The translations under genes were made by a program, and so were the position numbers. From the NCBI GenBank assembly GCA_031551255.1, contig JAVBNW010000066.1, forward strand, positions 8,955 to 72,954: 64,000 bases of DNA, given 5' to 3'. The notes under the pieces are model-generated. The model was not told where the DNA came from, did not search any database, and was given only the letters and a program-made list of their open reading frames with translations. The stretch's first letter is position 1. Every line of letters begins with the position of its first letter. Positions 35,550-39,399 of this stretch are shown here, piece by piece. Origin of the DNA: Eubacteriales bacterium (GTDB lineage Bacteria; Bacillota; Clostridia; Christensenellales; UBA1750).

Positions 35550-35639
35550 TGGCGGAGGAAGAGAGATTTGAACTCTCGCGTCGGTTTCCCGGCCTACTCC
35601 CTTAGCAGGGGAGCCCCTTCACCACTTGGGTATTCCTCC
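35550..35639 (-). tRNA. tRNA-Ser(GCT)
   Basis: GGAGGAATACCCAAGTGG..CTGCTAA..long variable arm..GTTCAAATC..CCA. Confidence 0.96.
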
Positions 35640-35645
35640 TCATCT

Positions 35646-35733
<88 letters not shown>

Positions 35734-35821: not shown

Positions 35822-35850
35822 AGTATATCGCACGCGAACACGGCTGTCAA
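35822..35850 (-). promoter_or_regulatory. Sigma-A promoter for the tRNA-Ser pair
   Basis: TTGACA-17bp-TATACT. Confidence 0.85.
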
Positions 35851-36045
35851 GGAGCGCCGGCAATCTCCCGGCTACGAAATCCACAGCGCACTTTACGCAT
35901 GCGCGCGCGGCGGTGTATCGGCCCTGTCAAAGGCCACATGCCGCCAAGAGCGACGCGCCACAAAGGCAAAACTCGCGCATAAACCATGTTGCCGATTGCA
36001 ATTTATGCGTTTTAGCCGGGCCATTTGTTCCACAGTGTGAAATAG

Positions 36046-36078
36046 CGATTAACCCCCGAATAACCGCCGATTAACAAG
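36046..36078 (+). promoter_or_regulatory. Pho-box-like triple direct repeat
   Basis: CGATTAACCCC CGAATAACCGC CGATTAACAAG, 11-bp period, upstream of the pstC-like gene. Confidence 0.65.
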
Positions 36079-36150
36079 GGGTTGTTGAGCCGCCCGTTTT
36101 CCTCCTTTACAATGCAATAGGGAATGTTTGCACGAAACGGAGGCGAAAAC

Positions 36151-36912
36151 ATGCAGCAAGCGCTTGGGCGCATGCCGGGCAGAGCTGCGCGGGTCTTCGC
36201 CGTGCTGCTTGTTTGTGCGCTGCCGCTCGCATATCTCGCCCTGTTTTTGCCTAACTGCGCCGGTGCGGCGTTCGCAGACGCGCTGGTGTCTCTGGGCGTC
36301 TCCTTTCTGCTGGCCATCGCCGCTCAACTTTTTATCGCCCCGCTTTCGCTATGCTATGCGTTTTCGCTGTTTGCCCTGTCCCCCTCGCCACGCAAACGAA
36401 TCCTCATGCGCGTCACACATTTTCTAAACGGCATCCCCCCCGTCGCCTGTGCGCTTGCCATACTCGCGCCTGCCCTCGCCTTGGGGGGCGGGCCTTCGGT
36501 TTTTATCGCGGTGTTGTCGCTTGCCGCCGCCTGCCTTCCCCGGGCATGCTCCATGCAAGCCCAAGCATTGGGCGATGTGCCCGATCGCTACTTGCTCGCA
36601 TGCGTCTCTCTTGGGGCGACGCGAGCTGAGGCAACCCGGGGTATCGTACTACGGCATGCCCGCAGGCCGATGATTGCGGCATGCCTCGTACTCTTGGCTA
36701 CCGCCATGGATCAGTTGGCCCTTATGCAACTCGCGCTCGGCCTCATACCCGGACTCTTTCCCGCCACAGGCGCGCTGCCTTTGCCTTCTTTACTACTGAG
36801 CGCAAGCGCATCGGGCGATACTTCGACCGCCGCGTTTTGCGCGCTGCTTTTGCTTGGCGCAGGCATGGCCTTCTCACTCGCCGCGCGCTGGGTCGCCAAG
36901 GGGAACCGATGA
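36151..36912 (+). CDS. Highly diverged PstC-like ABC permease
   Basis: Hydrophobic; LNGIPPV; EAA-like loop VPDRYLLACVSLGATRAE; operon context. Confidence 0.7.
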   Translation: MQQALGRMPGRAARVFAVLLVCALPLAYLALFLPNCAGAAFADALVSLGVSFLLAIAAQLFIAPLSLCYAFSLFALSPSPRKRILMRVTHFLNGIPPVACALAILAPALALGGGPSVFIAVLSLAAACLPRACSMQAQALGDVPDRYLLACVSLGATRAEATRGIVLRHARRPMIAACLVLLATAMDQLALMQLALGLIPGLFPATGALPLPSLLLSASASGDTSTAAFCALLLLGAGMAFSLAARWVAKGNR

Positions 36913-37619
36913 AATCGCCCCGTTTTACGATGCGAACCATCATGCACGCCTTCGGCGCGCTTGCGCTCCTTATCGGCCTTTACACGCCCGTCGCAATGGC
37001 TTTGGGTTCGCTGCGCGCTTCGTTTAGCGAAGTATGGCTCTTGGCCGTGCGCTCCTGTCTGCTGGCTATCGGCGCGGGCTGCCTCGCATCGGCGATAGGC
37101 GCGGCTGTAGCGTTGCTCTTATGGGAAGGCGTTCCGCGCCGCGCAAGGGCCACGCTGCTGAATATCCTGTACGCAACGGCGGGCATTCCGTCCGCCGCAA
37201 CGGCAGTGGCCGTGCTGCTGGCGTTCCCCAAGCTTAACGAAACCCTCCGCCTTGTAATCGCGCTTACCATCAGCATAGCGCCTTATGCCGCACGCTATTT
37301 GACAGAAGATTTAAGCTCCCTGCCCAAGTACGCGGTGGATGCTTCCCGGGCGCTCGGCTCAAACGGGCTGCGCATGGTGGTGGATGTCATCCTCCCCTAC
37401 GCGAAAAACTCGCTGCTCTCGACTTTTTTATATGCTGTTGCCCGTGCGTTTGTCGAAACGGCGGCGCTATCCATCCTGCTAAGTGGCGCGCCACGCTTCC
37501 TTGCGGTGAAGGTCGCTGCGGAGCCTCTATCGCCCGCGGCATTTCCCGCAGCCCTCATTCTGTGCATTGGGGCAATGCTGCTCTATGACCGCGCGCAGTT
37601 CCTGCGCGGAAGGAGATAA
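36909..37619 (+). CDS. Highly diverged PstA-like ABC permease
   Basis: AGIPSA; LPKYAVDASRALGS..VILPYA; ARAFVETA; ATGA overlap with the previous gene. Confidence 0.72.
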   Translation: MKSPRFTMRTIMHAFGALALLIGLYTPVAMALGSLRASFSEVWLLAVRSCLLAIGAGCLASAIGAAVALLLWEGVPRRARATLLNILYATAGIPSAATAVAVLLAFPKLNETLRLVIALTISIAPYAARYLTEDLSSLPKYAVDASRALGSNGLRMVVDVILPYAKNSLLSTFLYAVARAFVETAALSILLSGAPRFLAVKVAAEPLSPAAFPAALILCIGAMLLYDRAQFLRGRR

Positions 37620-37621
37620 TC

Positions 37622-38386
37622 TTGGATCATCAAGCGAAGCTTTCCACGCGTGCGCTGTGCGTGTTTATCGGTCGCCAGCAGATCTTAGGCCCGATCGACC
37701 TTTCGCTGGAGGATGGGCGCTTAACAGCGCTGATCGGCCCGCAAAGCGCCGGTAAAACAACGCTTTTGCGGGCCCTGAACCGGCTGATGGATGAGCGCTC
37801 GGGCGCGCGGGTCACCGGCAGCATACTGCTGGACGGTCAAAGTATCGACGCGATCGATCATAGGACGCTCACATCGCGGATCGGCATGATCTTCCCCGAG
37901 CCGGCAATCTTTCCGGGTACGGTTTTAGAAAACCTTGCCTACGGCCTGAGGCTGCGCGGCGTGCGCGATAAGGCGCTATGGCGGCTTGCCGCGGAACACG
38001 CGTTGAGAGAAGCTTTGTTGTGGAACGAACTGAAAGATCAACTCAACCATCCGGCAAGCGAACTTTCGGCGGAACAAAAACAGCGCCTATGCGTGGCGCG
38101 CACGCTGACACTCAACCCGGAGATATTGCTGCTTGATGAGCCGTGGAGCAGCATCGACGTGGGGTCCCGCTCGCGGCTGGAAGAATTGGTGCGCGAGCTT
38201 CGAGGCCGCTATACGATCCTGGCGACCGTCAGTGACATGAACCTGGCCGGGCGCATTTCGGACGACGCGGCGTTTTTGCTGGGCGGGAAGATCATCGAGC
38301 ACGGCCCGACGGAAGAATTGTTCTATCGCCCGAAGGATCAGCGCACAGGCGCTTTTATCACCGGACGCTTTGAGGCACAGTCGTAA
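37622..38386 (+). CDS. pstB: PstB-like ABC ATPase with degenerate catalytic motifs
   Basis: GPQSAGKTT, LNRL, LLLDEP, F.RPKDQRT..FITGRF. Confidence 0.85.
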   Translation: MDHQAKLSTRALCVFIGRQQILGPIDLSLEDGRLTALIGPQSAGKTTLLRALNRLMDERSGARVTGSILLDGQSIDAIDHRTLTSRIGMIFPEPAIFPGTVLENLAYGLRLRGVRDKALWRLAAEHALREALLWNELKDQLNHPASELSAEQKQRLCVARTLTLNPEILLLDEPWSSIDVGSRSRLEELVRELRGRYTILATVSDMNLAGRISDDAAFLLGGKIIEHGPTEELFYRPKDQRTGAFITGRFEAQS

Positions 38387-38467
38387 TTTAGTACTGCGCT
38401 GACGTACCCGGCGGACGAATCAGAAGGGTCTAAGCAGCGTGGCCGCCATACCGCGAGGAGGTATATC

Positions 38468-39106
38468 GTGACAAAAATGGATGCGGAACTTTTGTCGGTT
38501 AGACGCGAAGTCGTACGCATGGGCTCACTCGTGAGCGATATCGCTCTAAACGCCTCAAAGGTAGTTGCGCGCATGGACGCGGCGCTTGCGCGCGAAGTGA
38601 TCAGGGAGGACGAGTGGATCGACGAACTGCGCTTCCAGCTCGACGACAGGCTGATTCAGACGCTCGCGCTCAATCACCCGATGGGAGACGACCTCAGAGG
38701 CGTCGTGGGCGCGATGCGCATATGCGGCGATCTTGAGCGGGTAGGCGACTACGCGGTAAACATCGGCAAGGCGATGCTCAAACTTAACGAAGACGCGCGC
38801 GCGTGGCTGCACCCTTCTATACAGCCGATGGCCGACATCTGCGTGGATATGCTGGAAGGGGCGATGGATGCGTATTTTTCGCGCGACACCGACCGGGCGC
38901 GCGTGGTGAGCAAGCGCGACGACGAAGTGGATGCGTACTATAAAGAGGTCGAGCAATACTTCTCCGCCCAGCGCTCGCACTCCGGCGCGGTGTGCATCCA
39001 AAATGTGCTGATCGCGCGCGCGTTTGAGCGGATTGCCGACCACATCACCAACATCTGCGAGTGGGTGATGTTCGAAAGCACGGGGCTACACGAAGAACTG
39101 AACTGA
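38468..39106 (+). CDS. phoU: Phosphate signalling protein PhoU
   Basis: DLERVGDYAVNI, DDEVD, FERIADHITNICE. Confidence 0.95.
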   Translation: MTKMDAELLSVRREVVRMGSLVSDIALNASKVVARMDAALAREVIREDEWIDELRFQLDDRLIQTLALNHPMGDDLRGVVGAMRICGDLERVGDYAVNIGKAMLKLNEDARAWLHPSIQPMADICVDMLEGAMDAYFSRDTDRARVVSKRDDEVDAYYKEVEQYFSAQRSHSGAVCIQNVLIARAFERIADHITNICEWVMFESTGLHEELN

Positions 39107-39124: not shown

Positions 39125-39284
39125 TATCGTCGCCGACCCCAAAGCGCTCAAAAGACAGCGAACGGGAGGTTTTTCTCGCGAGGAAGGGGAAGGAGGCATA
39201 GCCGTAGCTATGGCGACTGGCCTGACAAAGCGTGGGGAACCGATCCGTCGCTGGACTTGTGTGCTTTGAGGGCCGGCGACGATA
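39125..39284. repeat. 160-bp TA-flanked hairpin element (MITE/REP-like), copy A
   Basis: Terminal IRs TATCGTCGCCG../..CGGCGACGATA; core nearly identical to 62083..62244. Confidence 0.9.
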
Positions 39285-39304: not shown

Positions 39305-39345
39305 AAAAAAGGGGCGCTTGACCACAGCGGGTCAAGCGCCCCTTT
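39305..39345. terminator. Bidirectional intrinsic terminator
   Basis: AAAAAAGGGGCGCTTGACC..GGTCAAGCGCCCCTTT between convergent genes. Confidence 0.85.
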
Positions 39346-39399
39346 ATCCTACCGGAAAATTTTCGGCCGCACCTTGGCAACCTTGCCTCAAGGCCCGCG

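Follow-up and report, generated by a model that had tools for sequence, protein, structure and literature searches.

Here we describe a four-gene operon related to the phosphate-transport genes pstCAB-phoU, which lies on the forward strand at positions 36151-39106 of a 64,000-nucleotide stretch of contig JAVBNW010000066.1 (positions 8,955 to 72,954) from the Eubacteriales bacterium assembly GCA_031551255.1; this whole stretch is referred to below as the window. The operon opens with the gene for permease 1 (36151-36912, 253 amino acids), which starts with ATG and has GGAGG 8 nt upstream. The gene for permease 2 (36909-37619, 236 amino acids) follows, its start overlapping the permease 1 stop as ATGA, and after a gap of 2 nt comes the gene for a PstB-like ATPase (37622-38386, 254 amino acids), with a TTG start and AAGGAG upstream. 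The last gene encodes PhoU (38468-39106, 212 amino acids); it begins with GTG, is preceded by AGGAGG and is separated from the ATPase gene by 81 nt. The unit is thus characterized by strong ribosome-binding sites, tight coupling and frames that are all open.

A first-pass annotation of this DNA, made from its letters alone, had placed the four genes at these coordinates and in these frames, which proved correct on re-checking, and had described the frames as intact and closely coupled, a description that the ATGA overlap and the 2-nt and 81-nt gaps bear out. It had also remarked on the lack of pstS. Neither pstS nor any other binding-protein gene was found in the operon or its surroundings, the flanks being a pair of tRNA-Ser genes, a putative terminator and a convergent gene.

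Sequence features of the operon proteins

Among NCBIfam models the ATPase scores best against the PstB equivalog TIGR00972 (251.2 bits), short of its curated cut-off of 343.2; since the next non-phosphate family gives at most 118 bits, the protein is best regarded as a derivative of PstB and of no other ATP-binding cassette (ABC) ATPase. Its motif states were called from an alignment to the E. coli PstB chain 9k3x_C and five canonical PstBs. Walker A (GPQSAGKTT) is intact and Walker B (LLLDEP) retains the catalytic Glu. The Q-loop reads GMIFPEP, with Pro for Gln, the signature is LSAEQ in place of LSGGQ, a Ser is aligned to the canonical His of the H-switch, and the A-loop is VFIG as opposed to the canonical FYYG, with Ile where an aromatic residue normally precedes the Gly. 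In the canonical PstBs aligned, the Q-loop Gln and the H-switch His are each present in 5/5 and the signature GG in 4/5. The alignment agrees with the first-pass account of retained Walker motifs, an altered Q-loop and signature and a lost H-switch His, and the verdict of a "catalytically crippled" ATPase is well supported by these motif states and their recurrence in all six members of its clade (see below). A further PstB, labelled as from a Kiritimatiellales metagenome-assembled genome (P0068), carries an LPMDQ signature with its other motifs canonical, which indicates that degeneration of the signature motif recurs within the PstB family.

In ABC proteins, the Q-loop and the H-switch act on the ATP of their own subunit; the signature works in trans, on the partner's ATP. 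These cis and trans roles are treated in PMC7756269. Because the ATPase is altered on both the cis and the trans faces of the ATP site, its homodimer would contain no consensus site, and a hybrid with canonical PstB would also be without one; by general ABC mechanism, then, no dimer containing this ATPase is expected to form a consensus hydrolytic site. An AlphaFold model of the ATPase built from a six-sequence alignment was poor (mean predicted local distance difference test [pLDDT] score 62.9, with 42-50 for the other four models) and was left unused.

Both permeases pass the Pfam cut-off of 26.4 bits for PF00528 (BPD_transp_1), permease 1 with 33.3 and permease 2 with 41.9 bits. Neither reaches the cut-off of PstC (TIGR02138, cut-off 196; 34 and 49 bits, respectively) or that of PstA (TIGR00974, cut-off 193; 30 and 38 bits). 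In E. coli, the membrane phosphate site consists of PstA Arg220/Glu224 and PstC Arg237/Glu241, and mutation of either Arg largely compromises transport (PMC12976172). When the permeases were aligned to PstA and PstC of the same genome, permease 2 was seen to keep the Arg/Glu pair of this site within ARAFVET, an Arg with a Glu four residues on, as do the three close permease 2 orthologues that were aligned. Permease 1 has TAMDQ, with Thr in place of the Arg and Gln in place of the Glu, so that the phosphate-site Arg is lost; its orthologue on L061, a 2314-bp contig from JGI, has Met and Gln at these two positions. The EAA coupling loops are recognizable and conserved in both proteins, more weakly in permease 1 and better in permease 2, in which the core reads DASRALGSNG...ILPYA. 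The first-pass claim that neither permease retains a GET motif or a clean EAA loop therefore holds for permease 1 and fails for permease 2.

In both permeases the periplasmic loops between transmembrane helices 1 and 2 and between helices 5 and 6 are mostly deleted or shortened relative to PstC and PstA of the same genome. The stretches deleted in both correspond to the regions that hold the PstS-contacting residues of E. coli PstA and PstC, listed in section 9 of PMC12976172, and both permeases are thus without the predicted periplasmic docking loops for PstS. An AlphaFold model of permease 2, built from a seven-sequence alignment (pLDDT 78; predicted template modelling [TM] score, pTM, 0.73), has six helices and the form of a type I importer subunit; its top matches in the PDB are the membrane chains 9k3x_B and 9k3y_B of E. 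coli PstSCAB (TM score 0.79), with ModB, PotC and MetI ranking below them.

The operon PhoU passes the cut-off of the TIGR02135 equivalog (184 bits against 130.25), Pfam finds two PhoU stretches in it, and both E/DxxxD motifs are kept (ERVGD and ERIAD). It shares 55-70% identity with its orthologues and 29% with the canonical PhoU of the same genome, of which it is a divergent paralogue. Earlier described as canonical, the protein deserves that term for its family score and its two motifs, and not for its relation to the other PhoU. Cys86 and Cys125 are present in 9/9 members of the PhoU clade and are not found in the genome's canonical PhoU; two further cysteines (...CIQN... and ...NICEW...) occur in most members. 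These clade cysteines adjoin both of the metal-binding E/DxxxD motifs and might provide an additional site for metal or redox chemistry.

Conservation, selection and rearrangement

A search with the ATPase among 5.8 billion proteins gave 7566 matches at E <= 1e-40 among 8000 candidates, of which the best 120 were listed. The query forms a clade with five metagenomic relatives (P0002-P0006) at 53-71% identity; all relatives outside these five, among the matches listed, have at most 49%. In 6/6 clade members the Q-loop has FPEP, the signature is of the non-GG form L[ST]x[ED][QR] and the H-switch His is lacking, while Walker A, DEP and 103 other alignment columns are invariant. That FPEP is itself invariant points to a new constraint at the Q-loop. 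The conservation of the substitutions in orthologues, which the first-pass annotation had proposed to check, thus extends to every member of the clade.

The arrangement of the operon is conserved along with its proteins. L061 carries the 3' end of ftsY, permease 1, permease 2 and the N-terminus of the PstB-like protein, and shares the ATGA overlap and the TTG start of the window. Orthologues of both the PstB-like protein and PhoU come from contigs of 2308, 2229 and 4449 bp, and those of permease 2, the PstB-like protein and PhoU from a 62194-bp contig; from the matching sizes and sources we infer that the orthologues share one contig in each of these cases. Two other loci from the metagenome scan, L063 and L067, have stop codons at the coordinates given and were excluded from the alignment.

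For permease 2, a word-index search returned the query alone, and the orthologues were recovered only by an exhaustive search, which gave 103 matches at E <= 0.001 and four, query included, at E <= 1e-30. The three orthologues are exactly 236 amino acids long at 45-46% identity, and a fourth member of their cluster also has 236 amino acids. Permease 1 is 42% identical to its L061 orthologue, with one gap in 250 residues. A search of the GTDB representative genomes for exact peptides of a window protein led only to relatives at no more than 47% identity, a procedure that orthologues with other peptides may escape.

Selection was estimated by a hand count over the first 76 ATPase codons of the window and L061. 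Of these, 74 were usable: 28 are identical, 31 differ synonymously only and in 15 the amino acid changes. For the ftsY fragment, the first 60 codons, compared between the same pair of organisms, comprise 27 identical, 28 synonymous-only and five residue-changing codons, so that synonymous divergence, at about half of the same-residue codons, is equal in the two genes. The resulting ratio of nonsynonymous to synonymous substitution rates (dN/dS) of about 0.1-0.2 is rough, with dS near saturation, and applies to the N-terminal third of the ATPase, the motifs beyond Walker A lying outside it. A dN/dS below 1, the other check proposed for the orthologues, is consistent with this hand estimate for the ATPase N-terminus, and frames and lengths are kept. 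Nor can constraint on the permeases be absent, because neutral drift at such a synonymous distance would destroy their frames. Taken together, the conserved substitutions, the conserved operon, the permease orthologues and the codon counts argue that the operon is not decaying.

The operon has changed its place in the genome. Its neighbour is ftsY in L061 and a pair of tRNA-Ser genes in the window, and the gene after ftsY in the window's genome is a different one, which indicates that the operon has moved; in spite of the changed location, its synonymous divergence matches that of ftsY.

Regulatory region, surroundings and other phosphate genes

A promoter scan placed a sigma-70-like promoter, TTGAGC-17 nt-TACAAT, at 36085-36113 on the forward strand, and both of its hexamers are kept in L061. 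Upstream of it, at 36048-36075 (forward strand), are three hexamer repeats, ATTAAC/AATAAC/ATTAAC, which follow each other in an 11-bp phase and end 9 bp before the -35 hexamer. In L061 they read ATTAAC/AGTAAC/ATTAAC, with positions kept and spacers that differ. The triple repeat matches once in the window, a result reached by 0/100 shuffles, and at one mismatch or fewer it occurs a single time in the whole genome; in both counts the pattern was set after the site had been seen. The array is likely to be a binding site for a winged-helix regulator of the OmpR/PhoB type, for which such a layout is typical, and its hexamer resembles the PhoP box of B. subtilis. Further upstream, a near-palindrome, GTTCCAC-N2-TGTGAAA (36027-36042, forward strand), is kept in L061 while its flanks diverge, and may be a second operator or regulator site. 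Palindrome, repeats, -35 and -10 thus stand in register ahead of the operon in both the window and L061, while the spacers between them diverge.

RNA was seen in one metatranscriptomic run, from the study that also yielded the best-matching DNA data. Two contigs match without mismatch: one covers 37445-38095 and runs from the permease 2 gene into that of the ATPase, and the other covers 38403-38608 and spans the start of PhoU. From 35832 to 37415 there is no metatranscriptome contig, though contigs cannot show absence. We take these data as a weak hint that the operon is transcribed at a low level.

On the upstream side, two adjacent tRNA-Ser genes (anticodons GCT and TGA) were identified with Rfam on the reverse strand at 35550-35733; they have a strong promoter-like site of their own at 35850-35822. 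Downstream, a hairpin with a perfect 14-bp stem between runs of A and of T was read from the sequence at 39305-39348, with no strand assigned. It is likely to act as a terminator in both directions, separating the operon from the convergent gene, which is of a membrane/zinc-ribbon type. A simple terminator scan missed this hairpin; a sub-threshold Rfam match at it was dismissed as meaningless, Rfam otherwise returning the two tRNAs alone. Between the PhoU stop and the hairpin, at 39136-39220, several separate metagenome contigs match at about four times the local depth, differ in a few letters and break there; this stretch is probably a small repeated element. The genes around the operon have unrelated housekeeping or miscellaneous functions.

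The first-pass annotation had suggested looking for a canonical pstSCAB elsewhere in the genome, and one was found. It is a full cluster, pstS-pstC-pstA-pstB-phoB-phoR-phoU, on contigs C121 (1-3113) and C5 (40471-43769), with scores of 254 bits for pstS, 258 for pstC, 246 for pstA and 201 for phoU. Its pstB is broken by contig ends into halves of 257 and 141 bits (TIGR00972), and since the break falls inside one gene at both ends, the two contigs should be adjacent in the genome. This PstB has every canonical motif, and the cluster also provides a PhoB-type regulator and a PhoR/PnpS-type kinase, as well as the only full PstS of the genome. Two orphan PBP_like_2 (PstS-family) proteins of 389 and 400 amino acids are encoded on C23 (38245-39009) and C30 (11405-11959); neither adjoins ABC genes, and both are unlinked to the operon. 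Two candidate PstB paralogues, on C11 (224 bits) and C73 (213 bits), were rejected as ATPases of polar amino-acid ABC systems. A 588-amino-acid open frame (C43, 2122-2682) with a sub-threshold PhoU-like domain (82 bits) may encode a Na/phosphate cotransporter that ends in a PhoU-like tail; the genome would then have a third phosphate-related system.

Proposed function and related systems

Set beside canonical PstSCAB-PhoU of E. coli (structures 9k3x, 9k3y and 9k3s; PMC12976172), the operon has the same permease-permease-ATPase-PhoU order, an ATPase whose best family is PstB, the Arg/Glu pair in permease 2 and a PhoU above its family cut-off. It differs in having no PstS, no docking loops and no site Arg in permease 1, in an ATPase whose Q-loop has no Gln, whose signature has no GG and whose H-switch and A-loop have lost the His and the aromatic residue, respectively, and in three transporter proteins that score far below their family cut-offs. 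We propose that the operon is a conserved, selected derivative of PstCAB-PhoU and encodes a non-pumping regulatory or sensory complex coupled to PhoU, a reading of the sequences in which we place about half of our confidence.

In such a complex, two minimal six-helix permeases without PstS-docking loops would still couple a PstB-like dimer through their EAA loops. Since these loops are conserved, as is the nucleotide-binding core, the complex probably follows PstCAB in its assembly. The PstS-driven, hydrolysis-powered import cycle would have been given up; the dimer would bind nucleotide and turn it over slowly or not at all, and the complex would rest in, or slowly toggle between, defined conformations. 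The operon PhoU would relay this state to phosphate regulation, acting either on the PhoR kinase of the canonical cluster or on the canonical transporter itself. ATP binding without efficient hydrolysis, complex assembly, PhoU docking and a signalling output are thus all predicted, and the sign of any such output is not predictable from sequence. The step from crippled motifs to the signalling scaffold or decoy that the first-pass annotation had suggested is likewise a prediction. The invariant catalytic Glu and Walker A/B motifs and the permease 2 Arg/Glu pair argue against a purely inert scaffold. In a more specific version, which we put forward tentatively, the importer would have turned into a receptor that, having neither binding protein nor hydrolysis, reports cytoplasmic nucleotide or phosphate occupancy by binding equilibria, and the cysteine-bearing PhoU would set the kinase/phosphatase balance of PhoR.

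Several observations weigh against the proposed non-pumping complex. Neither phoR nor phoB adjoins the operon, and no phased repeats were found upstream of the canonical pstS, so that membership of the Pho regulon is not established. The RNA contigs of the operon have a depth of 2.7-3.8, compared with 52 for a neighbouring gene, and may reflect DNA carry-over. Between the organisms compared, the FtsY fragment is 89% identical at the protein level, as against 42-46% for the permeases and about 70% for the PstB-like protein; judged by these identities, selective constraint on the operon proteins is weaker than that on housekeeping genes, clearly so for the permeases. Within the ATPase clade the H-switch stretch is variable, which points to a loss of constraint there.

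The distribution is also narrow. No orthologue was found in 40 relatives, where 30/41 genomes (the window's included) match at E <= 1e-30 and the best non-self match has 46% identity, and none was found with the ATPase in 400 same-class genomes, where 2/400 match at E <= 1e-70, the window's genome and one other at 46% identity, with one genome unscored. Likewise, no permease 2 orthologue was found in 400 same-order genomes: 6/401 match at E <= 1e-8, the window's genome included, and the other five score at most 38 bits. Finally, the conserved Walker A/B motifs, catalytic Glu and permease 2 Arg/Glu pair could allow some residual transport chemistry, and in ABCC1 and other proteins some Gln or Asn replacements in the H-loop and some Q-loop changes still permit transport (PMC7756269).

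These last points would favour a working, low-turnover transporter of phosphate or another oxyanion, operating without a binding protein or with an orphan PstS-family protein. Invariant Walker A, Walker B and catalytic Glu would suit such a transporter, as would the retention in permease 2 of one Arg/Glu pair of the E. coli membrane phosphate site, the conserved EAA cores of both permeases, the presence of two orphan PBP_like_2 proteins in the genome and the tolerance of H-loop or Q-loop substitutions in some ABC proteins (PMC7756269). We nevertheless consider it rather unlikely, given that A-loop, Q-loop, signature and H-switch are all changed together and on both faces of the site, that permease 1 is without the second Arg when E. 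coli mutants in either Arg are largely compromised (PMC12976172), that the periplasmic docking loops are deleted and that the orphan binding proteins are unlinked to the operon.

By analogy with ABC proteins that have become channels, the complex could also be a passive phosphate channel or release valve gated by nucleotide or PhoU and opened by ATP binding rather than hydrolysis, an explanation to which we assign a low probability. A retained nucleotide-binding core with lost hydrolysis residues, one Arg/Glu pair left in the pore region and a dedicated PhoU would all fit it, and an outward or bidirectional path needs no binding protein. E. coli PhoU, moreover, restrains phosphate flux through Pst. 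We know of no type I importer folds that act as channels, however, and the acidic signature residue may block the ATP-driven closure on which its gating would depend. It is scarcely credible that the operon is a redundant, presently functionless paralogue drifting to loss under relaxed selection, as its fast evolution relative to FtsY, variable H-switch region and very narrow distribution might suggest, when the four window frames are open, the L061 frames and the lengths in other lineages are kept despite near-saturated synonymous divergence, the substituted FPEP is invariant, ribosome-binding sites, start/stop overlaps and promoter/operator elements are conserved and the hand count puts dN/dS over the N-terminus of the ATPase at about 0.1-0.2. 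On the strength of motifs conserved in 6/6 clade members and of purifying selection, we reject the lineage decay that the first-pass annotation had considered.

The non-pumping complex that we favour has partial counterparts among known systems. The E. coli PstB mutants Q160K and E179Q abolish transport and keep signalling, in opposite directions: Q160K, in the signature motif, signals sufficiency and E179Q, in Walker B, signals starvation (Vuppada et al. 2018, PMC5775613). These lock mutants resemble the complex proposed here in being transport-dead and signalling through PhoU/PhoR, and the signature affected by Q160K is altered here too; they are, however, laboratory point mutants of a full PstSCAB, whereas the operon is a natural, conserved variant in several motifs that stands beside a normal system. 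Degenerate ABC sites, which hold ATP for long without hydrolysis, are a second parallel (PMC8421411, PMC7756269). The degenerate sites of Pdr5, TAP, CFTR and MRP1 have a non-consensus signature and H-loop, and the Pdr5 signature, LNVEQ (PMC8421411, PMC7756269), resembles LSAEQ. These proteins always keep one consensus site and usually lose the catalytic Glu of the degenerate one; here, both sites would be degenerate and the Glu is kept.

Within the PstB family, a metagenome contig (L060, 1-2476) carries two pstB genes in tandem, with phoU after them. Of these PstBs, the second (333 bits) has an LQLEQ signature and keeps the Q-loop Gln and the H-switch His; since a PstB of different sequence adjoins it, one consensus site can form, in what would be a heterodimer with one degenerate site. 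In the window, by contrast, there is a single ATPase gene, and its product is altered on either face of the site. In B. subtilis, pstBA and pstBB also encode paired PstB subunits with one degenerate site. BceAB-BceS transporter-kinase co-sensing shares with our proposal the idea that the state of a transporter homologue, rather than nutrient flux, is the output; it differs in protein families and architecture, and the operon has no adjacent kinase gene. UhpC is another example of a sensor derived from a transporter. In S. pneumoniae, dual functional Pst systems with two PhoUs have been described (PMC4913102). The nearest documented cases are dual Pst systems with two PhoUs, engineered PstB lock mutants and one-sided degenerate sites. 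A search of the full-text literature, with subscription journals and supplements outside its scope, returned no PstB with these substitutions and no PstS-less pstCAB-phoU operon.

If the complex is non-pumping, it would be a rare ABC importer without any consensus ATP site; if it should instead prove to transport, a PstB-type motor would be shown to need neither the Q-loop Gln nor the signature glycines nor the H-switch His. On how PhoR senses phosphate via PstSCAB and PhoU, the leading idea is that the signal lies in the conformation of the transporter rather than in its flux. The support for this idea comes from engineered PstB mutants, and the operon would offer a ready-made natural system in which to test it. 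Should the receptor version hold, the operon would be nature's equivalent of the lock mutants made in E. coli PstB and would give a direct handle on how the Pho system reads the conformation of Pst.

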